In this document: positions 1,904 to 62,136 of the stretch, one piece after another
How positions within the stretch are numbered: the first letter of the stretch is position 1
Layout: the number at the start of each line of letters is the position of its first letter
Assembly (NCBI GenBank): GCA_964651115.1
Contig: CAZYXJ010000002.1
Span: 48,338-112,337, forward strand
Direction of reading: 5' to 3'
Length of the DNA: 64,000 nucleotides
Source: an uncultured Candidatus Saccharibacteria bacterium
GTDB lineage: Bacteria; Patescibacteriota; Minisyncoccia; Phycocordibacterales; JACOZG01
Made by a program: the position numbers and the translations under genes
Notes under the pieces: generated by a model
What the model was told of the DNA's origin: nothing
Seen by the model: the letters and a program-made list of their open reading frames with translations, nothing else
Databases searched by the model: none

Positions 1904-4237
1904 ATGCCTAAAGTTGCCAAACGCTCACCTAAGATCGAAAAGAAGAAGCCCGTTTACGTGGTAAAAAAGGTGCGCAAGCGCGACGGCTCCGTAGTCTCGT
2001 TTGATGAGGGGCGGATTGCTTTGGCTGTGGGCAAGGCCATGAAGGCGACGGGCGAGGGTGGGGAGAAGGAGGCTTTGGCGGTGGCCGCCTCAGTGACGCG
2101 CGACCTCAATAAGGGTGCTCGGCAAGCCGAGGGCAAATTTGTCCCGACGGTTGAGGGGGTGCAAGACATTGTTGAGGCCCAGTTGATTCTCCATGGTTTT
2201 GTTAAGACGTCTAAGGCTTATATTTTGTATCGCCAGCGTCGGGCAGAAGTGCGCCAAGAGAAGGGCGAAGTGCCAAAGGAGGTTAAAGAATTGGCCGCGG
2301 AGAGCAAAAAATATTTCCGCAATCAGTTGTCGGAGTTCGTCTACTACACCACTTATTCCAAATGGATCCCCGACAAGAATCGTCGCGAGACTTGGGTGGA
2401 GACGATTGATCGTTACGTCGATTTTATGCGCGAGAATTTGGGCGACAAGTTGACGACTAAGGAATATGCCGAAGTTCGAGAGTATATGTTGTCGATGAAG
2501 GCGATGGGCTCAATGCGTTTGCTCTGGGGAGCGGGCAAGGCCGCTCGAGCGACCAACGTTTGTGCTTATAATTGTTCGTTTATCGCGCCCAGTCAGTGGC
2601 AAGATTTCGCGGAGATTATGTATGTGTTGATGTGCGGGACGGGCTGTGGTTACTCGGTTGAGAGTCAGACTGTCGAGATGTTACCGGTAATCCAAAAACA
2701 GCGCGGTGAAAAAGTTTTGCATCACAAAATTGCCGATAGCAAAGAGGGTTGGGCCGACGCCTTCTCTTTGGGTCTTCGGACCTGGGCCGAAGGTCGTGAC
2801 ATCATCTTTGATTATTCGTTAATTCGACCACAAGGGGCTCGCTTATCGACGATGGGTGGCCGCGCTTCTGGCCCCGCGCCCCTTCGTGCGCTTTTGGAGT
2901 TTAGTCGCGAACGGATGCTTAAGCGCCAAGGCCGTCGCCTGACTACCGTAGACGTTCATGACATTGTTTGTAAGACCGGGGAGGTGGTGGTGATGGGTGG
3001 CGTCCGGCGAAGCGCGTTAATCTCCCTCTCCGATTTAGATGATGAGTTAATGCGCACCGCCAAAAACGGTCAGTTCTGGATGACTAATCCTCAGCGGAGC
3101 ATGGCCAATAACTCAGCCGTTTATAATCAGAAGCCAACCTTGGATGTTTTCTTGGACGAATGGGTTAACTTAATGAAGGGTCAGTCTGGCGAGCGAGGCA
3201 TCTTTAATCGTGGCGGCTTAATTAATCAATTGCCGGCTCGACGCTGGCCAGTTTTTAAGCCCGATTCCGATACCTCGGGGACTAATCCTTGTGGTGAAAT
3301 CGTTCTCAAGTCTAAGCAGTTTTGTAACCTGTCCGAAGTTGTCGCGCGCGCCGACGACACTTACGAGACCCTGGCCGACAAGGTTCGGATCGCGACGATC
3401 TTGGGCACCTACCAGGCCACTTTGACTAATTTCCCCTATCTCTCTAAGGAGTGGAAGAAAAATTGCGATGAGGAGGCACTCTTAGGTGTGTCGATTACTG
3501 GTCAGTTCGATAGCCGAGTCGTACGCAATCCCAACACCCTACGCAAGCTCAAGGAGGTGGCGATCGAGACTAATCGTAAGTACGCCACTCGCTTTGGCAT
3601 TAACCAGTCAACTTGTATTACGACGGTTAAACCATCGGGTAACGGTTCGCAACTCTTCGATTCTTCTTCGGGAATGCATCCGCGTCATGCCCCCTTCTAC
3701 ATCCGGCGGGTTCGCATCGAGAGCCACAATCCACTCTTTATGATGTTGCGCGACATGGGTGTACCTCATCATCCGGAAGTTGGTCAGACTGCCGAGTCAG
3801 CCACCACTTATGTGCTCGAGTTTCCGATCAAGGCGCCCCGCGGTTCGATTTTTAAGAACGATTTGTCGGCCATTCAGCAGCTTGAGCACTGGCGAATGCT
3901 GAAAGAGAATTATACCGAGCACAATCCTTCCACGACGGTGTCGATTGGCGAGGAGGAATGGTTGCAAGTGGCAAACTGGGTCTACGAAAATTGGGACATC
4001 GTTGGTGGGCTATCCTTTTTACCTCGCAGTGATCACGTTTATCGTCTAGCGCCTTACGAGGAGGTTACCGAAGAACGCTACAACGAGATGGTTAAAAATT
4101 TCCCCAACATTGATTTCTCCAAAATTGTGCTTTATGAGTACGACGATCAGACGAAGGGTGCTAAGGAGCTGGCCTGTGTCTCGGGTACGTGCGAAGTAGA
4201 TATTCCTAGCCCGAGTGAGGAGGTCAACAAGAAGTAA
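1904..4237 (+). CDS. nrdJ: Class II (adenosylcobalamin-dependent) ribonucleotide reductase with N-terminal ATP-cone
   Basis: The N-terminus carries an ATP-cone (VVKKVRKRDGSVVSFDEGRI...). The catalytic region has the NPCGEI motif and the 777 aa length is typical of monomeric class II RNR. Confidence 0.85.
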   Translation: MPKVAKRSPKIEKKKPVYVVKKVRKRDGSVVSFDEGRIALAVGKAMKATGEGGEKEALAVAASVTRDLNKGARQAEGKFVPTVEGVQDIVEAQLILHGFVKTSKAYILYRQRRAEVRQEKGEVPKEVKELAAESKKYFRNQLSEFVYYTTYSKWIPDKNRRETWVETIDRYVDFMRENLGDKLTTKEYAEVREYMLSMKAMGSMRLLWGAGKAARATNVCAYNCSFIAPSQWQDFAEIMYVLMCGTGCGYSVESQTVEMLPVIQKQRGEKVLHHKIADSKEGWADAFSLGLRTWAEGRDIIFDYSLIRPQGARLSTMGGRASGPAPLRALLEFSRERMLKRQGRRLTTVDVHDIVCKTGEVVVMGGVRRSALISLSDLDDELMRTAKNGQFWMTNPQRSMANNSAVYNQKPTLDVFLDEWVNLMKGQSGERGIFNRGGLINQLPARRWPVFKPDSDTSGTNPCGEIVLKSKQFCNLSEVVARADDTYETLADKVRIATILGTYQATLTNFPYLSKEWKKNCDEEALLGVSITGQFDSRVVRNPNTLRKLKEVAIETNRKYATRFGINQSTCITTVKPSGNGSQLFDSSSGMHPRHAPFYIRRVRIESHNPLFMMLRDMGVPHHPEVGQTAESATTYVLEFPIKAPRGSIFKNDLSAIQQLEHWRMLKENYTEHNPSTTVSIGEEEWLQVANWVYENWDIVGGLSFLPRSDHVYRLAPYEEVTEERYNEMVKNFPNIDFSKIVLYEYDDQTKGAKELACVSGTCEVDIPSPSEEVNKK

Positions 4238-4272: not shown

Positions 4273-4580
4273 GTGCGGTGTTGAGTAATCGCTCTCACTC
4301 TCGGCTTAGCCGGTAGTGGGGGAGGAAAGTCCGAACACTCAGCTGTCTTTTGGCAACAAGGGTAGTGGTTAACGGCCACCGGGAGCAATCCTCGAGGTGC
4401 GAACAGAGACGAGTCTTCTGTCTTCGGGCAGAAGGGTGAAACGGCTAAATCCTTACCTGAGTGCAAGGCCGGACTCTCAAGTCCTCACGGATTTAGAGAG
4501 GGTGCCGCTTGATCCGTACGGTAACGTACTGGACAGATAAATGATTACCTAAAACAGAATTCGGCTTACGGACACCGCAC
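4273..4580 (+). ncRNA. rnpB: RNase P RNA (bacterial type, reduced size ~308 nt)
   Basis: Conserved P4 elements are present: GGAGGAAAGTCCG near the 5' end and ACAGAATTCGGCTTAC near the 3' end. A GGGTGAAACGGC motif is also present. Helix P1 pairs 5' GTGCGGTGT with 3' ACACCGCAC. No ORF covers this interval. Confidence 0.7.
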
Positions 4581-4592
4581 GTTTGCATCAGA

Positions 4593-4624
4593 CGCCCCGC
4601 CTATTTCGGCGGGGCGTTTGCTCG
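4593..4624 (+). terminator. Rho-independent terminator after rnpB
   Basis: The hairpin CGCCCCGCC-tatttc-GGCGGGGCG is followed by TTTGCTCGTTTG. Confidence 0.6.
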
Positions 4625-4655
4625 TTTGCCCATTTTCTCTTATGATTACAACATT

Positions 4656-6842
4656 ATGGATTCATCCTTGGTGCGTTCGCGCCCCGGCCTCTCGTTTAAT
4701 ACTCTGGCGCCTTTGATTTTGTCGGCGTTAGTGTTGGTTGTCCCGCTCTTAATTATCCCGGGTTGGCGGGGTGATTTGGAGGCCTGGCGTCGCCTGGTCG
4801 TGGTGGGGTTAGTTTTGTTGTCTGGCGGCGCTTGGACGATTGCTCGATTTCAGCGTGGTCGTTTAAGTTTGCCGTGGCATCCTTTGCTGGCGGCAACCGT
4901 GGCTTTGGCCCTGGCTCAAGCTTTGGCGGCGGCGTCAGTCGGTCCTTGGTTGTATGCGTTATGGGGCGGAGCTTTAGGTCCGGGATCAATTTTAAGTTGG
5001 CTCGGCTTCGCGCTTTCGGTTGCGCTTGGAGCTTACTATTTTAGTACGGCCGAGCGCATCCGTCAGTTAGTCGGCTTGGCCAGTTGGGGATTTGGGGCCG
5101 TGCTCGTGGCCGACACTTTAGCGCCGCTTACGGGCTTTCCCTTTATTGCAACCTTCGATGACCGCTTGCTGGTGCTGGGGTGGTTTATTTTTCTTAGTTG
5201 GTGGCTGATCACGAGAGCGACCACGAGGCGAGCTCGCTTCTTTGCTTGGCTGTTGTTTAGTTTGTCCTTGCTTTGGTGGCTTCTGACGGCTCGAGCGGTG
5301 TGGTTCCCCCTCATTTTAACTTTGGTGGGTTTGGGTTGGTGGTTGGCCCCTTGGATTATCGGCCAGCGAGCCAGGCGAGAAATGCGGCAACCTTTTGGTG
5401 TTTTAAGTGGATTGATGGTGGCCGCTTACGCTTTTTACTACGCTTTGCCTTTTGTGTTTGGTCGATTAGTTGGTTTCGTCGCGTCTCTCGGCTTGCCGGT
5501 TACTGGTCCCTTGCCCTGGTTGTGGTCGGGGAGAGTAATTGATGCCGCTTGGCGTCTTAAGCCGCTTACTGGCGTTGGCCTTTCGGCCGTACCGTCTCTG
5601 GTGGCGAGCCAGGGCGTAGGGACGATTGGTTGGTGGGCGGCTTGGTTGGCCGCTGGTGGGCTGGTGGTGGCCGCCGCTGCCTTGGCCTTGATTTTCTTTT
5701 GGTTGAGAACTTGGTGGCAGAGTCGCGTGCGGCCCAGTGACTCGGCGGGCGAAGCTGGTGAAGTGGCCTGGTTATTGGGGGCGTTGGTGGCTTGGAGTTG
5801 GTGTTCTTTGTTGGTGATTGCTCCCGGACTGCCATTTTTGATCTTGATCGCTCTCTTGACTGGAGCGTGGATCGGCTTATTAACCGCCGAACGGCGCCTT
5901 AACGTTAAAACTTGGGCCTTGGTTGATTCCTCGGGTCGCTTCCATCGAGCGTTTGGTGGTTTGGTATTGTTGGGCATTGTTTTGCTGGCGACCTTGGTGA
6001 TTAGTTTGCGAGTGGGCAGTGGTTTAGTTTTGGTAGAACGAGGTTTGCGTCTGGCTCCCATTAAAGAATCTCAAGCCGTGACCATGGTTACTAATGGTTT
6101 GCGTTTGGCGCCGAGCGATGAGCTGGCGAGATTGCTGGTGGATTGGCGTTTGCGCGAACTGGCTACGATGTCGTCGGCCACGACCACGACGGAGGAATTA
6201 AAGTTCCGCTTTAAGACCACGGCCGAGGCGGCCGTCGCCGCCGCGCGTCAGGCGCTCGTTTGGGCGCCTGACGCGCCAGCCAATTGGCTGGCGGCCGCTC
6301 GAGTTTCTGATGCTCTTGATTATTACGGCGTTGGCGGTGCCAAAGCGGAGGCCGAGGGGGCTTATGGTCAAGCGATTCGTTTGGCACCATACGATCTTAG
6401 TCCGGTGTTGTCGTGGGCTACGATGTTGGTGCGTCACCAAGAATCAGCGTCGGCCTTTAAATTATTGGAAGAATTTTTGGATCGCGTGCCCACCTCGGCG
6501 GCCGGTTTAGCCGCCTTGACGGAGTTGGCGGAGCGCCAAAATAATTTAAAGGTCGTTCTGGAGCGTTACGACCAGGCTCTCTCTCAGTCACCCCAAAATC
6601 CGGAATTGTGGTTCCAACGAGGATACGTCCATTATCGGCGCGGTGAATATTCTTTGGCCGTGACGGATCTGAGTCGGGCGTTAGAACTTTCACCTGGTTA
6701 CGCTAATGCTCTTTATTTCCGAGGATTGGGTTACCGCGCGCTCGGCAATCGGGCGGCCGCTTTGGCCGACTGGCAGTTAGTCAATCAGCTTAATCCTGGT
6801 TCGGCCGAGATCGAGGCCGCGTTAAAATCGCTCGACTCTTAA
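4656..6842 (+). CDS. Polytopic membrane protein with C-terminal TPR repeats (possible O-antigen ligase/polymerase-like)
   Basis: There are many hydrophobic helices rich in W, L and G. The C-terminal ~150 aa show TPR-like repeats (ELWFQRGYVHYRRGEYSLAVTDLSRALELSP, ALYFRGLGYRALGNRAAALADWQ). The ORF-track start at 4626 is a TTG lying inside the rnpB terminator T-tract, so the ATG at 4656 is preferred. Confidence 0.5.
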   Translation: MDSSLVRSRPGLSFNTLAPLILSALVLVVPLLIIPGWRGDLEAWRRLVVVGLVLLSGGAWTIARFQRGRLSLPWHPLLAATVALALAQALAAASVGPWLYALWGGALGPGSILSWLGFALSVALGAYYFSTAERIRQLVGLASWGFGAVLVADTLAPLTGFPFIATFDDRLLVLGWFIFLSWWLITRATTRRARFFAWLLFSLSLLWWLLTARAVWFPLILTLVGLGWWLAPWIIGQRARREMRQPFGVLSGLMVAAYAFYYALPFVFGRLVGFVASLGLPVTGPLPWLWSGRVIDAAWRLKPLTGVGLSAVPSLVASQGVGTIGWWAAWLAAGGLVVAAAALALIFFWLRTWWQSRVRPSDSAGEAGEVAWLLGALVAWSWCSLLVIAPGLPFLILIALLTGAWIGLLTAERRLNVKTWALVDSSGRFHRAFGGLVLLGIVLLATLVISLRVGSGLVLVERGLRLAPIKESQAVTMVTNGLRLAPSDELARLLVDWRLRELATMSSATTTTEELKFRFKTTAEAAVAAARQALVWAPDAPANWLAAARVSDALDYYGVGGAKAEAEGAYGQAIRLAPYDLSPVLSWATMLVRHQESASAFKLLEEFLDRVPTSAAGLAALTELAERQNNLKVVLERYDQALSQSPQNPELWFQRGYVHYRRGEYSLAVTDLSRALELSPGYANALYFRGLGYRALGNRAAALADWQLVNQLNPGSAEIEAALKSLDS

Positions 6843-6845
6843 TTT

Positions 6846-8525
6846 ATGGTGGCTCGCGTCTGGCGTTGGTTTACTCGAGAGTTTTCTAATCTGCACGAAG
6901 CGGCGTTGCTCTTGGGAGTGGCCGCCTTCTCCTCTCAACTTTTGGCGCTGATCCGCGATCGCTTATTGGCCGCCAACTTTGGCGCCAGTGGACAGTTGGA
7001 CGTTTACTACACGGCTTTCCGTTTGCCCGATTTGGTCTATGCCACGATTGCCTCTTTTGTCTCGGTGACTGTTTTGATTCCCTACGTCGTGACGGCTTTG
7101 ACGGAGGGTGATCGTGAGCGCGCGCGACGACTGCTTTCTAGTGTTCTGACGGCCTTTATGGCGGTGATGGTGGTGGCGATGGCGACGGTGTGGTTTTTGT
7201 TACCGTGGTTAGCGCCACGAATCGCTCCCGGCTTTGATCAAGAACAGTTGGCCTTGTTGGTGACTTATTCGCGGATCTTATTGTTTTCGCCCCTCTTTTT
7301 GGGTTTGTCTAACGTGTTGGGGGCGGTGACTCAGTCGGTGAGGCAGTTTTTTGTTTATGCCGCCAGTCCTCTTTTATACAATCTAGGGATTATTATTGGC
7401 GTGGTTTGGCTTTATCCACGCGTGGGACCGACGGGTTTGGTTTGGGGAGTGGTAATCGGGGCTTTTCTCCACGTGGCGATTCAGATCCCGGTGGTGTGGC
7501 GCGCCGGTGTCGCGCCACGTCTCGTTTGGCGTTTGAGTTGGTCGGAACTAGTAACGATTATTCGGACGTCGCTACCCCGCACTCTGGCTTTGGGGGCGCA
7601 TCAATTTACGTTGTTGATTTTGGTGGCCTTGGCTTCGGCGATTGGCGCGGGGGCCGTGTCGGTGTTTAATTTCGCGCTAAATTTGCAGTCGGTGCCGCTC
7701 TCGATTATTGGCGTGAGTTATTCGGTCGCCGCCTTCCCAACTTTGGCGCGTCTGTTTTCTAGTGGTCAGCGGGAGGAATTTTTGAGTCACGTAACGGGCG
7801 CTTTGCGCCACGTGTTATTTTGGTCTTTGCCGGCGACGGTGATGTTTATTGTTTTGCGGGCTCAGATTGTGCGAGTGATTTTGGGCAGTGGATCTTTCGA
7901 TTGGACGGCGACGCGTCTGACGGCCGCCGCGCTGGCCCTCTTCGTCCTGTCGGTTGCCGGACAGAATTTGATCCAATTATTTATGAGGGGCTATTACGCC
8001 TGCGGTCGGACGCGGCGGCCATTTGTGCTCAATGTGGTGGGGCTCTTGGTGTCGGTGGCGGCCGCGCCAGTGTTGGTCTGGTGCTTCCGTACGGCTCCCG
8101 GCTTTCGGGCGGTGGTCGAGAGAATTTTGCGGGTTGATGCCGTCGAGACCACGGCTATTTTGATGTTGCCACTGGCCTTTAGTTTGGGCGTGGCGGTTAA
8201 CGTTAGTTTGTACTGGTATTTTTTCCAAAAAGATTTTGGGCGTTTTTCGCGAGTGGTGGATCGAGCCTTAGGGCAGTCGGCGCTCGGCTCGTTGGTGGCC
8301 GGAGTGGTGACTTACCAGGTGTTGGGTTGGCTGGCGCCGCTGGTTAATCAAAATACTTTTTCGGGGATTTTTGTTCAGGGGGTGGCGGCCGGATTGGCTG
8401 GATTGGTCACCCTCATTATTATCTTGCGAGGCTTTAATAACCGAGAAATTAATGAGATCGAAACTTCGTTACGGCATAAGTTTTGGCGGGCCAAGCCCAT
8501 TGCCCCCGACCCCGAAGGGTTGTAG
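6846..8525 (+). CDS. murJ: Lipid II flippase MurJ (MviN)
   Basis: The N-terminal motif LIRDRLLAANFGASGQLDVYYTAFRLPDL matches MurJ. The protein is ~559 aa with 14-TM-like hydrophobicity. Confidence 0.8.
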   Translation: MVARVWRWFTREFSNLHEAALLLGVAAFSSQLLALIRDRLLAANFGASGQLDVYYTAFRLPDLVYATIASFVSVTVLIPYVVTALTEGDRERARRLLSSVLTAFMAVMVVAMATVWFLLPWLAPRIAPGFDQEQLALLVTYSRILLFSPLFLGLSNVLGAVTQSVRQFFVYAASPLLYNLGIIIGVVWLYPRVGPTGLVWGVVIGAFLHVAIQIPVVWRAGVAPRLVWRLSWSELVTIIRTSLPRTLALGAHQFTLLILVALASAIGAGAVSVFNFALNLQSVPLSIIGVSYSVAAFPTLARLFSSGQREEFLSHVTGALRHVLFWSLPATVMFIVLRAQIVRVILGSGSFDWTATRLTAAALALFVLSVAGQNLIQLFMRGYYACGRTRRPFVLNVVGLLVSVAAAPVLVWCFRTAPGFRAVVERILRVDAVETTAILMLPLAFSLGVAVNVSLYWYFFQKDFGRFSRVVDRALGQSALGSLVAGVVTYQVLGWLAPLVNQNTFSGIFVQGVAAGLAGLVTLIIILRGFNNREINEIETSLRHKFWRAKPIAPDPEGL

Positions 8526-17433: not shown

Positions 17434-17505
17434 GGCCCTATCGTCTAATGGCTAGGACATCACCCTCTCACGGTGGTAATCGGGGTTCGACTCCCCGTAG
17501 GGTCA
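17434..17505 (+). tRNA. tRNA-Glu (anticodon CTC)
   Basis: The 5' end reads GGCCCTATCGTCTAATGGCTAGGACA. The anticodon loop CTCTCAC sits on stem TCACC/GGTGG, and the T-arm is CGGGGTTCGACTCCCCG. Confidence 0.8.
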
Positions 17506-17672
17506 CAGGATCAAAAAAGATGTAGCCGGAGGTTACGTCTTTTTGCATCCCTAGTGATCTCTTGGCCGAGAGAGTTGAAAGTCACAGTCCGCCAGGGGGC
17601 GGACGAGGCGGGGTCGAGCAATCCGCCAGCGGGGCGGATATGCGTGACCACAGATTTTGATATAGTTATAAA

Positions 17673-18329
17673 ATGAAATTATTACTCACTTCAGCCGGAA
17701 TAACCAATAAATCTCTGGCAAATGCCCTGCTTGAGCTTACGGGTAAACCTTTCGAGGAAACCTCAATTGTTTTCATTCCTACCGCTTCAAATGTTGAAAA
17801 AGGTGATAAAGGCTGGCTGATTGATAACTTAGTTCAGCTTCAAAACCTAAACTTTAAACAAATTGAAATTGTCGATATTTCTGCTGTTCCCGACAGGGTT
17901 TGGAGGCCCAAGCTCGAAGAGGCCGATGTGCTTTTCTTTGGAGGCGGTAACACTTATTACTTAATGGAATGGTTGAATAAGTCCGGCCTTACTAAGCTTC
18001 TGCCCGAACTTCTCAAAACCCGTGTGTATTTAGGTGTGAGTGCGGGAAGTATGGTTACAAACCCTGATTTAGCTCTCAAGCTTTCTCAGGTGGTATATGG
18101 AGAAGATTTGGATAAGATGGAAGATGTGGATGGCTTAGGGTATGTAGATTTTTACTTCTTGCCCCATCTTAACTCTGAGTACTTTGTAAATCTTAGGAAA
18201 AAGAATATCGAAGAAGTTTCTACTGGAATGACCGCAAAGATTTATGCGATGGATGATGCTTCTGGTTTGAAAATCGTTGATGGAAACATAGAAATTGTCA
18301 GCGAAGGTGAATATCTAGAATTTAATTAA
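17673..18329 (+). CDS. Peptidase E-like (S51 family dipeptidase)
   Basis: The GGGNTYYL and GVSAGSMV motifs and the overall colinearity match PepE. The local GC (~40%) is well below the window average. Confidence 0.7.
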   Translation: MKLLLTSAGITNKSLANALLELTGKPFEETSIVFIPTASNVEKGDKGWLIDNLVQLQNLNFKQIEIVDISAVPDRVWRPKLEEADVLFFGGGNTYYLMEWLNKSGLTKLLPELLKTRVYLGVSAGSMVTNPDLALKLSQVVYGEDLDKMEDVDGLGYVDFYFLPHLNSEYFVNLRKKNIEEVSTGMTAKIYAMDDASGLKIVDGNIEIVSEGEYLEFN

Positions 18330-18355
18330 TAGACGAGGTCTGGAAAAATTAGAAG

Positions 18356-18745
18356 ATGATAAATCCTTCACGTGGGCTTAAAATAATCATCTTAGCTACT
18401 TTGTTTATTGTGGCTGGATTTCTCTTAAGCGGTAAATCAAGCGCCGTTACTCCTTCCGTGGCCAATGTTGAAGTAAATAATACTCCCCTGATAATAGATC
18501 ACGGGCAATCTATTCCCGATTATTATCCAACGAAGAAAACGGTCAGCGGTAATAATTACTCAAATGCTGAACCTCAGAAATCTGTTATGGGCCCAAGTAC
18601 GAATGGCGATAAAGACTGCAAAGACTTTAGTACTCAGCTTGAGGCGCAGACCTATTTTGACTTTAATGGTGGCAGTCTTGTCAACAACGTGGACAAATTA
18701 GATGGTCCAGATCGCGATGGGAAGGTTTGCGAAAGCTTACCGTAA
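18356..18745 (+). CDS. Excalibur calcium-binding domain protein (secreted)
   Basis: The N-terminal signal/TM is followed by a C-terminal DKDCKDFSTQLEAQTYFDFNGG...DGPDRDGKVCESLP segment, a close match to the Excalibur signature (DxDxDGxxCE). Confidence 0.7.
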   Translation: MINPSRGLKIIILATLFIVAGFLLSGKSSAVTPSVANVEVNNTPLIIDHGQSIPDYYPTKKTVSGNNYSNAEPQKSVMGPSTNGDKDCKDFSTQLEAQTYFDFNGGSLVNNVDKLDGPDRDGKVCESLP

Positions 18746-18761
18746 ATTTTAGAATATTTTC

Positions 18762-18986
18762 ATGATCAAGCCGGGAATCTATCGACACTTTAAGGGCGAG
18801 GATAAGAAATATGAGGTCATTGGCACCGCGATGCACTCCGAGACGGGCGAGTCGCTGGTGGTCTATCGCGCCCTCTATGGTGAGGGTGGTCTCTTTGTTC
18901 GGCCGGAAGCAATGTTTCTGGAGGAGGTGGACAAGCCCGAGTACAATTACCGCGGCCCGCGATTTATTTTTGTGTCAGAAATTTGA
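18762..18986 (+). CDS. DUF1653 domain protein
   Basis: The GIYRHFKG...AMHSETGESLVVYRALYG pattern is typical of DUF1653. Confidence 0.6.
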   Translation: MIKPGIYRHFKGEDKKYEVIGTAMHSETGESLVVYRALYGEGGLFVRPEAMFLEEVDKPEYNYRGPRFIFVSEI

Positions 18987-42483: not shown

Positions 42484-43665
42484 ATGAGACGAATCTATCT
42501 CGATACGGCGGCGGCCACACCCTTGGATCGGCGGGTGGCGCGGGCGATGTGGCGAGCCGGAGCGTTGGTGGGCAACCCCGCTAGCTTGCATGAGGAGGGA
42601 GTTGTGGCATCTCGAGCACTGGCGCGGGCTCGAGCGGTGGTGGCCGGCTGTTTGGAGGCTCGACCGGAAGAAATTGTTTTTACCAGCGGTGGAACGGAAT
42701 CAAACAACTTAGCTCTGCGTGGGGTTGGCGGCGATGGCTCAATCATCACGACGATGATTGAGCATGCTTCGGTTAAACATCCGGCCCAAGAATTAGCCGC
42801 TCGGGGCACGGAGGTGGTTTGGCTCGGGGTTGATAAAAACGGTTTGATTGATTTGGCGGAGCTGGCTCGGTCCTTGCGTCCTTCCACCAAATTAATTTCT
42901 TTAATTTACGCTCATCACGAATTTGGCGTGATTCAACCAGTGCGCGAGATCATGAAGGTGGTGCGCGATCATCGAGCTAAGCATGGTGTGGCGACGCCGT
43001 ACGTTCATCTGGATGCTAGCCAGGCCGCGCGGCATTTGGATTTGTCGGTGGCGCGATTGGGGGTGGATCTAATGACTTTGGGCGCGGGCAAATTTTACGG
43101 TCCGCGCGGCATTGGTTTGCTTTATGTTCGACGTGGCGTGCCGGTGGTGGCGGAGCAGCTGGGTGGTGGACAGGAGGCAGGCCGTCGGTCGGGGACGGAG
43201 CCAGTGGCTTTGGCGGTGGGTTTGGCGCGCGCGCTAGAATTAGCGCGCGCGAGCCGCGCCGGCGAGGCGGCGCGGCTCGAAAAATTGGGAACAATTTTTG
43301 CGCGCGAAGTGACGTCACTGCCCGGCGTGGAACTAGTGGCCGCCACGGCGCCGCGCGTGCCGCACATTTTAAATTTTTTAGTCGACGGGGTGCTGGCCGA
43401 ACAGCTCGTGCTGGAGCTGGATGCTCGGGGGATTGCCGCCTCAACGGGCAGTGCTTGTGCCATCCGTACGGCCGAAGAGTCGTATGCTATAATGGCTCTC
43501 GGGCACTCGAGCGAAGCGGCCAAAACGGCCATCCGTTTTTCGCTTGATCGCACTACCACGGCTCGACAGTTGCGAGTAGTCTCTCGTCACTTGGCCGCGG
43601 TCATTAGTCGCTTAAGAAAATATCAACCCCAAGCTTATGCACGAGATTCCTTCCCTGTCTTATAA
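42484..43665 (+). CDS. Cysteine desulfurase (class V aminotransferase, IscS/NifS-like)
   Basis: The N-terminus MRRIYLDTAAATPLD matches. A PLP-lysine region and a C-terminal SGSAC active-site Cys motif are present. Confidence 0.8.
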   Translation: MRRIYLDTAAATPLDRRVARAMWRAGALVGNPASLHEEGVVASRALARARAVVAGCLEARPEEIVFTSGGTESNNLALRGVGGDGSIITTMIEHASVKHPAQELAARGTEVVWLGVDKNGLIDLAELARSLRPSTKLISLIYAHHEFGVIQPVREIMKVVRDHRAKHGVATPYVHLDASQAARHLDLSVARLGVDLMTLGAGKFYGPRGIGLLYVRRGVPVVAEQLGGGQEAGRRSGTEPVALAVGLARALELARASRAGEAARLEKLGTIFAREVTSLPGVELVAATAPRVPHILNFLVDGVLAEQLVLELDARGIAASTGSACAIRTAEESYAIMALGHSSEAAKTAIRFSLDRTTTARQLRVVSRHLAAVISRLRKYQPQAYARDSFPVL

Positions 43666-57577: not shown

Positions 57578-58573
57578 ATGAGCGAGCAATACCATAATTC
57601 GATTTTTTGGATCGAGGTCGATAAAATTCGCCCCAATCCTTACCAGCCGCGACTAGAATTTGATCAGGATAAACTGCAAGCCTTGTCTGATTCTATTCGT
57701 CAATATGGCGTACTCCAGCCGCTGGTCGTGACGCGGCGAGAAGTTACTCGCGAGGACGGAGGAATTGCCGTGGAGTACGAATTGATTGCCGGCGAGCGTC
57801 GCTGGCGCGCCTCCAAGCTCGCCGGAGTTTTGCAGGTGCCAGCCATAATTCGGCAGGGTGAGGGGTCCGACAAGCTCAAGTTAGAGATGGCGATTATTGA
57901 AAATCTCCAGCGCGAAGATCTTAACCCCGTGGAGCGCGCCAAGGCTTTTCAAAAGTTGGCTCAAGAGTTTAGTCTTAAGCACGCGGAGATTGCTCGTCGG
58001 GTGGGCAAGAGTCGTGAGTATGTGTCTAACTCGATTCGCATTATGGCCCTACCGCCAGCGGCGCTGGAACTTTTGTCGGCGGGCAAAATTACTGAGGGTC
58101 ACACCCGTCCGATTTTGATGTTGTCTGATCGCCCCGAGGAACAGTTAACTTTAATGCAAGAGATTTTGGTTAAACATTTGTCGGTTCGTGATACCGAGGC
58201 CATCGCTCGACGGATTGCTTACGATAAGGTGCGGAAGAAGGAGTACTTGTTAGATCCGCGGATCGCTGAGGTTGAGCAAGAGCTAACGCAAAAGTTGGGG
58301 ACGCGCGTGACGATCGACCGCAAGCAGGTCGGCGGCAAAGTGATTATCGACTTTATTTCTAACGACGACCTGCATCTCATTCTCGATTTGTTGTCTAAGC
58401 GTGAGCAGCAGGCCGCGCCAGCGCCGCGGGCCAATCATGGTCGCGAGCAAGAGAGCTTGGAAGCCGAGATTCCCGTGGCCCTGGCGGCGGAGGTGGCGGA
58501 GACGCCCGCGGCGCCAGTTGAGGAGCCGGCGCCGGACGATGACCTTTATAATATTAAGAATTTTTCTCTCTAA
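57578..58573 (+). CDS. parB: ParB/Spo0J chromosome partitioning protein
   Basis: The ParB box ELIAGERRWRASKLAG and an HTH are present, with a C-terminal acidic/Ala-rich tail. Confidence 0.85.
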   Translation: MSEQYHNSIFWIEVDKIRPNPYQPRLEFDQDKLQALSDSIRQYGVLQPLVVTRREVTREDGGIAVEYELIAGERRWRASKLAGVLQVPAIIRQGEGSDKLKLEMAIIENLQREDLNPVERAKAFQKLAQEFSLKHAEIARRVGKSREYVSNSIRIMALPPAALELLSAGKITEGHTRPILMLSDRPEEQLTLMQEILVKHLSVRDTEAIARRIAYDKVRKKEYLLDPRIAEVEQELTQKLGTRVTIDRKQVGGKVIIDFISNDDLHLILDLLSKREQQAAPAPRANHGREQESLEAEIPVALAAEVAETPAAPVEEPAPDDDLYNIKNFSL

Positions 58574-60762
58574 CTTTTTGCTGGAGCGTTTAGTTTATGG
58601 GGATTATGATTCGGACAAGTCTTGTCACTACATCTTTCGGGTATCGTTTTGGTGCCTTCCATCATTAGGGCGCCGCACATTGGGCAGAGTTTGCCGGTGG
58701 GTTTGGTTTTGATGATGTTCTTGCACTTGGGGTAATTGGAACAGCCGTAAAAGGGCCCAAAGCGTCCGCGCTTTTCGATCATGTTACCCTGACGACATTT
58801 TGGGCACTCGACGCCAGTATCACTTAAGCCGCCCTTGCCCCCGCTTTCGTCTTTTTTAATATACTTACATTTGGGGTAGTTGGAGCAAGCCACAAATTTG
58901 CCATAGCGACCTTCGCGCTCCATTAGTTGATGGTCGCAGTCTGGGCATTTTTCTTCCAACAATTTCGGACCCTCCATTTCTTTACCTTCTAGGGTGCGTG
59001 CCCCCTGGCAGTCGGGAAACTTGGCACAGCTGTAGAAGCGGCCACTCTTTCCTAGTTTAATAATCATTGGGCCAGCACAGGTAGGGCACTTCATCTGGCT
59101 GGGGGCCTCACCGAGATTAGAAATTTTTTCTAAATCTTTCTTTGATTTGATTGCTTTGACAAAGGGGCCGTAGAAGTTTTCTAGCATCTTGACGTACTCT
59201 TCTTTGCCGGCGGCAATGTTGTCGAGTTTGTCTTCCATTTCGCGGGTAAAGTCGTCACTGATGTAGTGAGCAAAATATTTGTCGAGAAAGTCGCTGACTA
59301 CTTCGCCGGTATCGGTGGGACGGAGACTGCGCTGTTCTTTCTCCACGTAACCTCGATCAATAATGGTTTTAATAATTGAGGCGTAGGTGCTCGGTCGGCC
59401 GATACCGCGCTTTTCTAATTCTTTAACTAAGCCGGCTTCCGAATAGCGGTTGGGTGGCGTGGTCTCTTTGCCGGTCGCTTCGATGGTGACTAATTCGAGT
59501 GGTGAGTTAACTTGGAGGGCGGGTAGTTCGTTCTCCTCACCGCGAGCCGCTGGATCAGCTTTAAGCCAGCCGTCAAAGGTGACGACTGAGCCGTTAGCGT
59601 GGAAGTCGGGCAAATTTTTAGCTTCGGCCGTGACTTTAGTCTTAAGTAGGCCGGCGTCACTCATCTGACTGGCAATGGTTCGAGACCAGATTAGACGATA
59701 AAGTTTTTGTTCTTGAGGTGAGTGGCCCGCGCCCAGCACGTCGGCATGGGTGGGCCGGATCGCTTCGTGGGCTTCTTGGGCATTTTTTGATTTGGTAGCG
59801 TAGGTCTGACGTTGGTGATAGTTGGCGCCAAATTTTTGCTTGATCACGGTTTCGATTTCTCCCAGCGCGATGGGGCTGAGATTGGTACTGTCGGTGCGCA
59901 TGTAAGTAATGTGACCGGCTTCATAGAGTTTTTGCGCCAGGCGCATGGTGATCGATGGCGAATAGCCCAAGCGCGATGAAGCGAATTGTTGCAGGGTTGA
60001 GGTGGTAAATGGCGGCCGAGCGCGCCGCTTGGTCTCGGTTTGTTTAATGTCGGAGATTTTCCAGTTGGCCTGACGAGCCGAGTCAACAATTTGATCGGCT
60101 TCGGCTTGAGTCGTCGGCTCTACACTGCACCCAAAGGGGATGGTGCCGCCGGTCGTGGTTTTAAATTGCGCCTCAATCACCCAGTAAGCTACTGGGACGA
60201 AAGAGCGAATTTCTTTTTCCCGCTCGACGAGGATGCGGAGGGCGGGCGATTGGACTCGCCCCGCCGAGAGCCCGTAGCGGAGCTTTTTCCAAATGAGGCC
60301 GGAGAGATCGTAGCCAAACAAGCGATCCAAAACTCGACGCGCTTCTTGGGCGGTCTTGAGATTTTCGTCAATGCCGCGGGGGTGTTTGATGGCTTCTTGG
60401 ACCGCCGGTTTGGTGATCTCGTGAAAGACGATGCGCTTGGGATTTTTTAAGCCAATCGCCTCTTGGAGATGCCAAGCGATGGCCTCACCTTCGCGGTCGG
60501 GGTCAGTGGCGAGTAGAACTTCGCTCGCTTTTTTGGCCAAGCTCTTTAGTTCGCTGACAACTTTTTCTTTACCTTTAGAAATTTCGTAATGAGGAACAAA
60601 GCCGCCGCTAATGTCGATGGCGTTCTTGCTCGACTTTGGCAGGTCGCGAATATGACCGATCGACGCGCGAACGGTGTACTCGTTGTCGAGGTATTTAGAA
60701 ATAGTTTTGGCTTTGGCGGGGGACTCAACAATCAGGAGTTTTTTGGAAGAACTCGTACTCAT
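58570..60762 (-). CDS. topA: DNA topoisomerase I
   Basis: The Toprim N-terminus KKLLIVESPAKAKTISKYL and a catalytic Tyr region are present. Multiple C-terminal CxxC zinc ribbons follow. Confidence 0.9.
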   Translation of the reverse strand: MSTSSSKKLLIVESPAKAKTISKYLDNEYTVRASIGHIRDLPKSSKNAIDISGGFVPHYEISKGKEKVVSELKSLAKKASEVLLATDPDREGEAIAWHLQEAIGLKNPKRIVFHEITKPAVQEAIKHPRGIDENLKTAQEARRVLDRLFGYDLSGLIWKKLRYGLSAGRVQSPALRILVEREKEIRSFVPVAYWVIEAQFKTTTGGTIPFGCSVEPTTQAEADQIVDSARQANWKISDIKQTETKRRARPPFTTSTLQQFASSRLGYSPSITMRLAQKLYEAGHITYMRTDSTNLSPIALGEIETVIKQKFGANYHQRQTYATKSKNAQEAHEAIRPTHADVLGAGHSPQEQKLYRLIWSRTIASQMSDAGLLKTKVTAEAKNLPDFHANGSVVTFDGWLKADPAARGEENELPALQVNSPLELVTIEATGKETTPPNRYSEAGLVKELEKRGIGRPSTYASIIKTIIDRGYVEKEQRSLRPTDTGEVVSDFLDKYFAHYISDDFTREMEDKLDNIAAGKEEYVKMLENFYGPFVKAIKSKKDLEKISNLGEAPSQMKCPTCAGPMIIKLGKSGRFYSCAKFPDCQGARTLEGKEMEGPKLLEEKCPDCDHQLMEREGRYGKFVACSNYPKCKYIKKDESGGKGGLSDTGVECPKCRQGNMIEKRGRFGPFYGCSNYPKCKNIIKTKPTGKLCPMCGALMMEGTKTIPERCSDKTCPNHNPHKLNAPAKS

Positions 60763-60827
60763 TGAGCTACATTAGTACTACACGGTCGAAAATTTTGCAA
60801 ACCTAACTGATAATAACTCACCCCAAA

Positions 60828-60852
60828 CCCCTCTCTTACTTTAAGAGAGGGG
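60828..60852. repeat. Palindromic hairpin repeat, upstream copy (CCCCTCTCTTA-ctt-TAAGAGAGGGG)
   Basis: An 11-bp perfect stem. Its partner at 61223-61247 differs by a compensatory pair. Confidence 0.6.
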
Positions 60853-60873
60853 TGGAGTATAATTATATTACTG

Positions 60874-61239
60874 ATGAGTCCGAAAAAGTTTATCTACAAT
60901 AATCAAAAGTTTAAAGAACGCCGAAGGGAACTTAGAAAAAATCAGACTAGGGTTGAGGGGATTTTATGGCAACACATTCGCGGTGGTAAGTTAAATGGAT
61001 TCAAGTTTTATCGTCAATACAGCGTTGGACCATATATCTTAGATTTTTATTGTCCTAAAATTAGACTAACCATAGAGCTTGATGGTAAATCCCACGAGTC
61101 CAAGGATGCAGAGAATTACGATCAAGAACGTACGGATTACTTGTACAATAACGATATCAAAGAAATTAGGTTTAAAAATGTTGAGGTGTTAGAAAACGTC
61201 CGGGGCGTTATCGAGAAAATTTCCCTTCTCTTAAGGTAA
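60874..61239 (+). CDS. DUF559 endonuclease-domain protein (Vsr/restriction-endonuclease-like fold)
   Basis: RRELRKNQTRVEGILWQHIRGGKLNGFKFYRQYSVGPYILDFYCPKIRLTIELDGKSH matches the DUF559 signature. The gene is ~37% GC against ~57% for the window. Confidence 0.7.
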   Translation: MSPKKFIYNNQKFKERRRELRKNQTRVEGILWQHIRGGKLNGFKFYRQYSVGPYILDFYCPKIRLTIELDGKSHESKDAENYDQERTDYLYNNDIKEIRFKNVEVLENVRGVIEKISLLLR

Positions 61240-61247
61240 GAGAAGGG
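61223..61247. repeat. Palindromic hairpin repeat, downstream copy (CCCTTCTCTTA-agg-TAAGAGAAGGG)
   Basis: An 11-bp perfect stem that overlaps the DUF559 stop codon. The C>T change in the 5' arm is compensated by G>A in the 3' arm relative to the upstream copy. Confidence 0.6.
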
Positions 61248-61263
61248 CGAGGGATGAGTTATG

Positions 61264-62136
61264 TCAATATAAACGAATTTCCCCGCCAACTTCTTTGATT
61301 AATCCTTTAAGCTCTAGCAGTCCGAGTAGAGAATTAGCTTCGCTCGTTGAGAGGGCCAGCGCGCGGATTAACTCATCGCGCGGGAGAGCTTCGAGGGCTA
61401 GGCAGTCGACTACGCGACGTTCGCTGGGCGAGAGTTGAGAAAATTCGAAGGAGCGTTGATGTTCGTTGGCTTCGTCGGAACTTAGGCCGAAAACTTCTAA
61501 AATATCGTGGGACGAAGTGATGGGTGTGGCGCCTTGGCGGATCAGGCGATTGGTGCCGACGGACCCACCATTGAAGATTGAGCCAGGCACGGCCAGGACC
61601 TCGCGATTGTAATCTAGGGCCAGTCGGGCCGTGATTAGGGTGCCAGACTTTTCGCCGGCCTCAATAATTAATACCGCTTCGGCGACGCCCGCCATGAGTC
61701 GGTTGCGTTTGGGGAAGGTGTGGAGACCGGCGGGATAAGTGAGCGGAAATTCGGAGACCAGAGCGCCGCCGGCGGCGACAATTTCTTCCGCCAGGCGGCG
61801 ATTCGACGGCGGATGCAAAACACTTGGGTCCAGACCAGAGCCAGGGAAGGCGATCGTGGGTAAGCGGGCAGTTAAGGCGGATTGATGGGCGACAGTGTCG
61901 ACGCCGAGCGCCAGGCCAGAGATGATGGCGATGGGTTGGCCGGTTAACCCGCTGATTAGTGACTCGCAGACTTCTCGACCGTAATGAGAGAGGCGTCGCG
62001 ATCCTACGACGGTGAGGAGGTGGAAGGTGGGTTCGGGCCATTGGCCGGCCAGCCACAGCGTGGCTGGCGGCTCGGGGATCTCGGCTAAGGCCGGGGGCAA
62101 ATCAGCCAGGGCGATTAGTTGGGGCGAGCTCATCAC
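61264..62136 (-). CDS. dprA: DNA processing protein DprA (Smf)
   Basis: A Rossmann-like core (VVGSRRLSHYGREV...ISGLALGVDTVAHQSAL) is followed by a C-terminal winged helix. Confidence 0.8.
   Translation of the reverse strand: MMSSPQLIALADLPPALAEIPEPPATLWLAGQWPEPTFHLLTVVGSRRLSHYGREVCESLISGLTGQPIAIISGLALGVDTVAHQSALTARLPTIAFPGSGLDPSVLHPPSNRRLAEEIVAAGGALVSEFPLTYPAGLHTFPKRNRLMAGVAEAVLIIEAGEKSGTLITARLALDYNREVLAVPGSIFNGGSVGTNRLIRQGATPITSSHDILEVFGLSSDEANEHQRSFEFSQLSPSERRVVDCLALEALPRDELIRALALSTSEANSLLGLLELKGLIKEVGGEIRLY

Follow-up and report, generated by a model that had tools for sequence, protein, structure and literature searches.

The 64-kb stretch of Candidatus Saccharibacteria DNA analysed here, which we call the window, holds between topA and dprA a small low-GC gene of the DUF559 family that is bracketed by two perfect hairpins. 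The question raised by this locus is whether gene and hairpins form one unit and, if so, how the encoded protein might relate to the structures around it. An original prediction, made from the sequence alone, had proposed a small mobile or selfish cassette, and this proposal is supported by exact empty-site junctions, a foreign base composition, near-identical genes in unrelated flanks and the same layout in at least eight other loci. We lean, with some reserve, towards the view that positions 60814-61261 are a 448-bp horizontally acquired selfish cassette, whose YcjD-like DUF559 nuclease would act on the cassette's own structured ends. This view is based on the anatomy of the unit, a three-way covariation within its ends, its insertion relative to an empty site, a wide linkage between the nuclease genes and the terminal modules, module pairs that carry no gene, and near-identical genes in unrelated contexts.

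Anatomy of the cassette

Hairpin A (CCCCTCTCTTActtTAAGAGAGGGG, 60828-60852) and hairpin B (CCCTTCTCTTAaggTAAGAGAAGGG, 61223-61247) lie exactly where they had been predicted, around the DUF559 open reading frame (ORF; 60874-61239, plus strand, 121 aa, Pfam PF04480, E 2.5e-31), and B overlaps the stop codon, the TAA being the first triplet in its 3' arm. Both have a perfect stem of 11-12 bp (12 bp in A if the pair A60827-T60853 is included), a 3-nt loop and a homopurine 3' arm, TAAGAGAGGGG in A and TAAGAGAAGGG in B. They are among the longest perfect hairpins of the window and represent its sole two copies of the hairpin or of the module described below, where chance would give none. Folded as single-stranded DNA, with Watson-Crick pairs only being modelled, they reach -11.7 (A) and -9.5 kcal/mol (B), with z about -5.4 relative to shuffles. 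The low GC content of the gene was likewise recovered: the ORF has 36.3% GC against 51.3% in topA (58570-60762, minus strand) and 58.8% in dprA (61264-62136, minus strand), and the lowest-GC 366-bp stretch of the window begins at 60830. The figure of ~57% GC that had been given for the genome did not hold, the window mean being 52.3%.

The original prediction treated the repeat as a palindrome whose copies are direct and inverted repeats of each other at once. The hairpin is indeed there, but it makes up just two-thirds of each repeat, and the symmetry disappears when loops and flanks are included: the two copies then differ by 3 mismatches as inverted repeats and by 5 as direct repeats, and are thus inverted only. 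The inverted repeat reaches outward to 40 nt (60813-60852 versus 61223-61262, 83% complementary), reading ATAACTCACCCCAAA plus hairpin against hairpin plus CGAGGGATGAGTTAT, and the extra 11 nt on either side repeat the purine arm in mirror image. TAAGAGAGGGG is followed, 2-5 nt on (mode 3), by GGGGTGAGTTA, and TAAGAGAAGGG by GGGATGAGTTA. The order within a module is a pyrimidine (Y) arm, a 3-nt loop, a purine (R) arm, a second 3-nt loop and a mirror purine/T strand ending in GTTA, which by its sequence qualifies as a predicted class II purine-motif intrastrand triplex motif. In purine-motif triplexes the third strand runs antiparallel to the purine arm and forms G·G-C, A·A-T and T·A-T triads. 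The left third strand mirrors the purine arm TAAGAGAGGGG past a 3-nt spacer with 10 of 11 canonical purine-motif triads, and the right module gives the same score. When the C-rich strand was instead read as the third strand of a parallel pyrimidine-motif triplex, only ~7 of 11 triads were canonical by hand count, which makes the G-rich strand the better candidate. The features of the cassette, in window coordinates, are as follows.

60814-61261, plus strand: whole cassette, 448 bp, TAAC...GTTA; module (minus), promoter-like spacer, DUF559 gene, module (plus)
60814-60824, minus strand: candidate third (reverse-Hoogsteen) strand of the left module, GGGGTGAGTTA on minus and TAACTCACCCC on plus; outer end of the cassette
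60825-60827: spacer AAA between hairpin A and the left third strand
60828-60852: hairpin A, with Y arm CCCCTCTCTTA, loop ctt and R arm TAAGAGAGGGG
60858-60863, plus strand: TATAAT hexamer, candidate -10 element of the DUF559 gene; perfect, 11 nt before the ATG, read from the sequence
60874-61239, plus strand: gene for the YcjD-like DUF559 (Vsr-like PD-(D/E)XK) putative nuclease; 121 aa, 36% GC
61223-61247: hairpin B, CCCTTCTCTTA, loop agg, TAAGAGAAGGG; supplies the DUF559 ORF with its terminal residues SLLLR and its TAA stop
61251-61261, plus strand: candidate third strand of the right module, GGGATGAGTTA, after the spacer CGA (61248-61250); 10/11 canonical triads; outer end of the cassette
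60763-60812, minus strand: host topA promoter region, …GTTAGGTTTGCAAAATTTT…GTAGTACTAATG…; abuts the left end of the cassette and lies outside it

A consensus scan predicted an overlapping promoter-like site, TTAAGA-17-TATATT (60841-60869), at the candidate -10 element. In a terminator scan hairpin A was unreported on both strands, and hairpin B appeared as a weak site on the minus strand only, after dprA, with a AAATTTTCTC tail; the region contained two terminator-like sites versus 0.9 expected in shuffles. A scan of 60700-61350 against Rfam, with E up to 10, returned only chance-level matches, the best (E 0.06) to an unrelated leader.

Covariation of three strands

The single C>T difference between the 5' arms had been noted as matched by G>A in the 3' arms. 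This was confirmed, and it is only part of the change: in hairpin B the two substitutions are accompanied by G>A in the third strand. Since the third strand mirrors the purine arm, the compensatory pair is in fact a compensatory triple.

To find further copies of the hairpin, which the original prediction had called for, the pattern CCYYTCTCTTAnnnTAAGAGARRGG was scanned against one genome per species. At least 133 exact matches in at least 120 loci were obtained, where ~1 is expected by our own estimate from the information content of the pattern; at least 118 of the exact matches in other genomes are to the stem of hairpin A. All of the matches are Watson-Crick compensatory, although the pattern permitted 16 arm combinations, which sustains the earlier suggestion that the structure itself is under selection. 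Among the matches listed, 113 of 133 have a flank GG[R][W]GAGTTA no more than 20 nt away on one side or both. Where that flank is recognisable, a G in the arm goes with a G in the third strand in 105 of 106 matches (CCCC-type) and an A with an A in 10 of 10 (CCCT-type), with a Fisher p of 1e-13 that is inflated by kinship of the copies by descent and comes from a test in which either outcome would pass the threshold.

The same correspondence extends to other arms, which carry their own mirrors (TAAGAGGGAGA/AGAGGGAGTTA, TAAGAGGAGGG/GGGAGGAGTTA, TAAAGGGAGGG/GGGAGGGATTA). Canonical triads amounted to at least 90% in 134 of 385 flanks, compared with 0.1% of background positions. Across 339 modules with 92 distinct R arms, pre-selected at 85% or better triads, G stands opposite G at 1928 of 1944 positions and A stands opposite A or T at 1206 of 1210.

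A module subtype at loci L016, L027, L032, L066 and L107 (L numbers are our handles for loci in other genomes) differs on one side, where a conserved insert of 16 nt (CCGAGCGNAGCGAGAG) separates the hairpin from a GGGGTGAGTTA word; the third strand on its other side is normal.

Insertion of the cassette and gene-less module pairs

The host resembles Paceibacteria. The gene order serS-dprA-[variable]-topA-parB is kept in relatives, as is the topA promoter region (by-eye alignment with L204, L205 and L207). In L205 and L206 this region, attatcttagatttgcaaaag..., directly follows the dprA stop, whereas the window junction reads tga-ca-[ TAACTCATCCC ...448 bp... GGGGTGAGTTA ]-ttatcagttaggtttgcaaaat. 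The DNA that is extra relative to L205/L206 is therefore exactly module-gene-module, 60814-61261. The empty site sought by the original prediction thus exists, but the single hairpin copy expected there does not: the L205 site has no module, which argues that gene and modules arrived together here.

DUF559 genes that are 80-92% identical in nucleotide sequence were found with unrelated DNA on both sides (e.g. L193/L180 and L181/L192), whereas true orthologous DUF559 loci retain flank homology. We further identified 59 outward module pairs with the common ends TAAC...GTTA, whose gaps are bimodal: either 3-134 nt and gene-less, with a mode of 20-21 nt, or 355-548 nt, the class that includes the window. 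Most of the 355-548-nt pairs enclose a DUF559 gene (L020, L068, L076, L123, L125, L130, L142, L143 and the window), and the gene-less pairs, whose ends are the same, lie scattered among Patescibacteria.

ATTTATGGA, which is found in the start region of DUF559 genes, recurs in the 20-21-nt spacers of several short pairs (L021, L058, L088 and L043, gene-less or gene-adjacent). There is a hint, though the mini-ORFs are inconsistent, that gene-less pairs are internal deletion derivatives of gene-carrying cassettes.

A promoter-like block (TTTGCAAAA ... GTAGTACTAATG ... ATG) precedes topA in the window (60763-60812) and in L204, L205 and L207, and the cassette stops at its upstream edge. A solitary module at L098 abuts a very similar GTTAGGTTGCGCAAAATTT. 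We considered L098 as an orthologous gene-less site and rejected it: its flank resembles the topA promoter of the window, but its neighbour genes are different, and all that follows from it is that a module can lie directly beside a similar promoter-like sequence. An insertion preference beside such promoters may be hinted at.

The dprA-topA spacers of L203, L204 and L207 contain ORFs at 2400-3029 (209 aa), 4447-4776 (109 aa) and 4486-4941 (151 aa), respectively. All three are different, have no Pfam hit on record and are followed by a terminator-like hairpin.

Linkage of DUF559 genes and modules

The association between gene and repeat was measured on 80 metagenomic loci chosen by protein alone, of which 71 had both flanks available. 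Triplex modules lie within 400 bp of the gene in 62 of these 71 homologues: on both sides in 36, upstream only in 15 and downstream only in 11, with none in the remaining 9. Module density is 2.65 per kb up to 300 bp from the gene versus 0.123 per kb elsewhere on the same contigs, a 21-fold enrichment. The stop codon falls within a module hairpin in 21 of 79 genes, and in one subclass the third strand finishes at the start codon, GAGTT-ATG.

Outside these loci the repeats are common. Most of the exact matches listed are in Patescibacteria (Saccharibacteria, Zambryski-, Ames-, Portnoy-, Peregrini- and Uhrbacteria, Paceibacterota), with some in metagenome-assembled genomes (MAGs) of Pseudomonadota and Nitrospirae, and among them only about one copy in ten adjoins a DUF559 gene, ~90% lying apart from one. 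In 838 kb of other genomes we counted 237 modules, compared with none in shuffled sequence; they are depleted in ORFs, and solitary modules also occur between unrelated genes. A search of IMG/VR viral contigs with the hairpin pattern gave no match, and thus no sign of phage carriage. It had been stated that hairpins common throughout the genome and unassociated with DUF559 would speak against a cassette. The repeats are indeed widely dispersed and not private to it, but they are 21-fold enriched around DUF559 genes, and because of this enrichment the pattern resembles that of repetitive extragenic palindromes (REPs) and their RAYT transposases rather than unassociated repeats.

Exact-hairpin matches that lack a third strand, in Oscillibacter (L005 and L042), Pumilibacter (L046) and Bacillus thuringiensis (L084), were set aside as apparently unrelated hairpins.

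In a MAG labelled 'Gammaproteobacteria' (CAZLVV01; L045 4380-5320 and L012 6483-6553), identical modules, all with the loop AAC and the spacer AAA, form arrays with a spacing of 46 nt or ~109 nt, both around a DUF559 gene and on other contigs. These arrays suggest recent within-genome amplification.

The DUF559 protein

The closest homologue of the window protein is 66% identical to it, within a family that is abundant in Patescibacteria. By BLASTP the protein is 42% identical to E. coli YcjD (E 1e-25), which places it in the YcjD subfamily, though it is no YcjD equivalog: it scores 74.7 bits against NCBIfam PRK09767, below the cut-off of 218. Pfam reports only DUF559, MTES_1575 and PvuRts1I-like on it, and every family-invariant residue is present, including D57, E68, D70 and H74. 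Its AlphaFold2 (AF2) model has a pLDDT of 86 and matches in Foldseek the DUF559 structure 3hrl (E 6e-8), the catalytic domain of I-Bth0305I (3r3p; E 6e-4, probability 1.0, TM 0.54-0.71), PvuRts1I and AbaSI, and weakly Vsr itself (1vsr, E 0.13). It is plausible from the model that the protein is an active Vsr-fold nuclease.

Two more familiar roles were considered and rejected. A Vsr repair endonuclease would carry Pfam PF03852 instead of PF04480, and the neighbours here are topA and dprA, with no Dcm-type methyltransferase. For an anti-phage defence component, PADLOC gave only weak nuclease-domain matches, mREase_II (E 1e-5) and DpdF, beside the same adjacent ORFs, topA and dprA; the locus therefore holds no recognisable defence system.

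YcjD and the triplex repeats of enterobacteria

Class II intrastrand triplex motifs have been described by Holder et al. 2015 (PMC4666352), whose E. coli repeat TMECO has the consensus CCCTCNCCC N3-6 GGGNGAGGG N3 GGGNGAGGG, is identical to BoxC and to Maher's PIT elements, and forms a triplex in vitro by circular dichroism (CD), nuclear magnetic resonance (NMR) and dimethyl sulfate (DMS) probing. K-12 has 23 intergenic copies, five of them as inverted pairs, and TMECOs are tied to local genome variability, yet the authors never found transposase or integrase remnants near them; ycjD appears in their supplementary table solely as a flanking gene (PMC4666352).

In K-12 we observed that TMECO no. 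9 lies on the same strand as ycjD, 168 bp downstream of it, and that a decayed triplex motif overlaps the ycjD stop codon. Between this stop and TMECO no. 9 (L209; E. coli K-12 NC_000913.3, ~1351240-1351410) there is a diverged duplicate of the last ~60 nt of ycjD (…ggagacggtgctggagaatattcggcaaggtctgaaccg…). Duplicate and decayed motif together look like a scar left by repeated rearrangement at the gene's 3' end. YcjD homologues of Enterobacter asburiae, Klebsiella oxytoca, Kluyvera and Franconibacter are located at different chromosomal loci, and each of these four genes ends within a type B TMECO on the opposite strand (...ACCCTCACCCCGGCCCTCTCCCTGA, followed by aagggagaggg), with a type A TMECO 11-105 nt further on in 3 of the 4.

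Of 5426 complete E. coli genomes, 3378 carry ycjD, in nearly all cases as one copy and with at least 95% identity. A 2026 paper places ycjD in phylogroups A, B1 and C, with the eefRABCD operon there instead in the others, and published TMECO counts are 18-30 in A/B1/C strains, 1-2 in B2 and 6-15 in D/E/F. The presence of ycjD tracks TMECO copy number in a way that we find suggestive, though phylogeny confounds it. We take the named strains with TMECO counts to belong to these phylogroups.

Relation to known elements

Of the known systems, the BoxC/PIT/TMECO repeats come closest to the modules. They have the same succession of Y-arm, 3-6-nt loop, R-arm, 3-nt loop and mirror strand (PMC4666352; Hoyne and Maher 2000 as cited), one purine-arm A faced by T as in the window modules, and an intergenic, multi-copy occurrence, often in inverted pairs, with a copy number that varies by strain. 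They differ in sequence (CCCCTCTCTTA...TAAGAGAGGGG...GGGGTGAGTTA in the window versus CCCTCNCCC...GGGNGAGGG...GGGNGAGGG) and in the phylum of the host, and since the window modules do not match the TMECO consensus, they constitute a separate sequence family of the same structural kind. The TMECO triplex is known physically in vitro, whereas the window modules are assigned to that kind by their sequence. Here the motif stands on both sides of a nuclease gene and delimits an inserted unit, whereas TMECO was published without a mobility gene. On the protein side, YcjD (b1289) and 3hrl (Neisseria NGO0050; sequence match E 5e-27) belong to the same subfamily, at 117-121 aa, and YcjD shares with the window protein the link to triplex motifs.

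Other elements resemble the cassette in part. REP/RAYT units also place one small nuclease-type gene between inverted short structured repeats, which are dispersed singly and in clusters as well, and presumably recognise folded DNA together with a short adjacent conserved word; however, RAYT is a relative of HUH Y1 transposases whereas the window protein has a predicted Vsr-like PD-(D/E)XK fold, and a REP is a plain imperfect palindrome with a GTAG-type head and no triplex motif. The IS200/IS605 elements are likewise tiny, with hairpins at subterminal ends and no target duplication, and folding of single-stranded DNA may be common to both; the cassette differs in having neither HUH TnpA nor TnpB and in ends that are inverted copies of each other. 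I-Bth0305I (PDB 3r3p), a Vsr-like EDxHD homing endonuclease, shares the nuclease fold and a small, selfish-looking gene that is present or absent at its site, but it is only 18% identical; the DUF559 gene sits in the intergenic spacer that separates the stop of dprA from the topA promoter, with no intron, intein or conserved target gene, and has structured repeats at both ends, which homing endonuclease genes lack. Miniature inverted-repeat transposable elements (MITEs; Correia, RPE, Nezha) resemble the gene-less units of 80-110 bp in sharing inverted ends with a longer gene-carrying unit, in lying between genes or at gene ends, and in being able to donate stop codons. Terminal inverted repeats, as in transposons and MITEs of that type, are found here (40 nt, 83%; TAAC...GTTA in 59 pairs), but the only ORF is DUF559 and not a DDE transposase, no target-site duplication is seen, and the end is a triplex motif. 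Membership in the REP/RAYT, DDE-MITE, Vsr/Dcm and classical homing-endonuclease groups was rejected in each case for want of a defining feature.

A possible mechanism and its rivals

Because the mirror strand ends each module, the 3' cassette end on each strand can fold, with the third strand filling the major groove of the hairpin. In the mechanism that we propose, G·G-C, A·A-T and T·A-T triads would fill this groove at the cassette 3' end. The nuclease would recognise the folded or extruded module by its structure, not its sequence, and would nick or cut at or near it. Repair or copying of the break might then spread the module pair, with or without the gene and with no target-site duplication, in a relationship like that of REP/RAYT or IS200/IS605, but with a Vsr-fold nuclease and a DNA triplex as its basis. 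That activity would also account for the instability reported around E. coli TMECO repeats. By extension we put forward, tentatively and with a confidence somewhat short of even, that YcjD-like DUF559 nucleases may be the missing partner enzymes of intrastrand-triplex repeats bacteria-wide (BoxC/PIT/TMECO and the TAAC...GTTA modules of Patescibacteria), a new mobile or selfish class that would be recognised as folded three-stranded DNA and would cause the instability there.

Several observations weigh against a selfish cassette of this kind. No YcjD-like DUF559 protein has a nuclease activity, a substrate or a phenotype that is known to us. DMS footprints taken in vivo in E. coli gave no triplex protection (PMC4666352), and in earlier tests, as summarised in that paper, PIT elements were without promoter, terminator or conjugation effect. 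The D, E and F strains retain 6-15 TMECOs though most are reported without ycjD, and the relation of ycjD to copy number is confounded by phylogeny. The relative with the empty site is distant (DprA 67% identical), and other relatives hold unrelated small genes at the same place, which marks the dprA-topA spacer as a variable spot. Outside the TAAC...GTTA ends, 46 of the 59 pairs, the window included, show no target-site duplication, which makes classical cut-and-paste transposition unlikely; a cryptic TA duplication could still be concealed inside the cassette ends. Module orientation relative to the gene is variable, all four combinations being found, and the modules that flank one gene are often unlike in sequence, so that a sequence-specific enzyme cannot explain the pairing and structure-specific recognition must be assumed. 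Finally, the window contains just the two modules and no dispersed copies, and thus no sign of activity in this genome.

The main rival, which we judge unlikely though worth keeping in view, is that the DUF559 gene is a free-standing homing endonuclease gene whose target is the module pair: gene-less pairs would be cut, and repair would copy the gene into them, the modules being older and independently spread. Its best characterised structural neighbour, I-Bth0305I, is after all a homing endonuclease; outward pairs with and without the gene have the same ends, and the gene fits precisely from hairpin to hairpin with its stop codon inside the second. The lack of a target-site duplication, the ratio of modules to genes (~10 to 1 among the matches listed) and the TMECOs still held by E. 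coli strains reported without ycjD would also follow. One defined target, however, leaves the variable orientation of the modules unexpected; the window offers no further module pair as a target, the L205 empty site has no module at all, and TMECO counts are highest in the ycjD-bearing lineages.

A host-side function appears improbable to us. The modules would then be structural or regulatory (terminators, insulators or replication pause sites), with the DUF559 protein a repair nuclease that resolves the triplex or hairpin, and both would be co-selected. Earlier work, as cited in PMC4666352, found that DNA polymerase is blocked in vitro by triplex motifs, against which a dedicated nuclease could be of use; the modules lie mostly outside long ORFs, hairpin B is weakly terminator-like for dprA on the minus strand, and ycjD is a single-copy gene with at least 95% identity among nearly all its E. 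coli carriers. Set against this are the foreign GC content of the cassette and its absence from a relative, together with the patchy distribution and the near-identical genes in unrelated contexts. Hairpin A lacks a T tract, a third strand is superfluous for termination, and a housekeeping repair gene has no need of a stop codon inside a repeat; the published tests summarised in PMC4666352, moreover, found neither terminator nor promoter activity of PIT elements.

We attach very little probability to an element that works at the RNA level, whether by mRNA stabilisation, by translational control through a purine-rich, Shine-Dalgarno (SD)-like third strand, or as a small RNA. The hairpins would be stable as RNA too, and one subclass, with its third strand running up to the start codon (GAGTT-ATG) and its stop codon within a hairpin, could be read in this way. 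But the strand of the modules relative to the gene varies, and single modules stand between unrelated genes, mirror symmetry plays no part in RNA pairing, the Rfam scan found no family (best E 0.06, unrelated leader), and the purine motif does not form in RNA according to earlier work as reported in PMC4666352. Coincidence, with two ordinary look-alike terminator hairpins flanking an ordinary gene, can claim the weak T-rich tail of hairpin B on the minus strand and is refuted by the absence of any match expected by chance in the window, by at least 133 exact matches in other genomes where ~1 is expected, by a conserved flank that covaries with the arm, and by the 21-fold enrichment of modules at DUF559 genes.

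Both the triplex-repeat kind and the protein family are already known. E. coli has been known since the 1990s to carry BoxC/PIT/TMECO repeats, and to our knowledge they have been assigned no function, means of spread or associated gene; DUF559/YcjD is a very large family of small nucleases for which we know of no role. The partnership of DUF559 with triplex repeats, the three-way covariation over ~90 arm variants and the TAAC...GTTA cassette were not found in Rfam or in the searchable literature, which leaves subscription journals outside. There is evidence, from Patescibacteria to Enterobacteriaceae, that DUF559 genes and triplex repeats belong together, and the geometry is conserved, the end of the gene lying within the motif. 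If this link is functional, both orphans would gain a role, a type of mobile element would be built on a Vsr-fold nuclease and a DNA triplex, and the natural three-way covariation would be in-genome evidence of selection for DNA triplexes. E. coli K-12, with one ycjD and 23 TMECOs, allows direct testing.

Other features of the window

A second low-GC island (38-43% GC) at 17600-18800 adjoins tRNA-Glu (17434-17506) and looks like another acquired patch. It codes for a Peptidase_S51 protein (17673-18329) and, at 18356-18745, for a 129-aa protein that looks secreted and matches Excalibur weakly; a DUF1653 protein comes next (18762-18986). No triplex modules were found in the island. At 43226-43279 there are two very GC-rich perfect hairpins with stems of 11 and 12 bp and a two-base overlap, unrelated to the triplex modules. 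Between 4800 and 8400 the AT skew is very strong (-0.4 to -0.5), which is unusual for the window, over two long plus-strand ORFs at 4626-6842 (738 aa) and 6846-8525 (559 aa).

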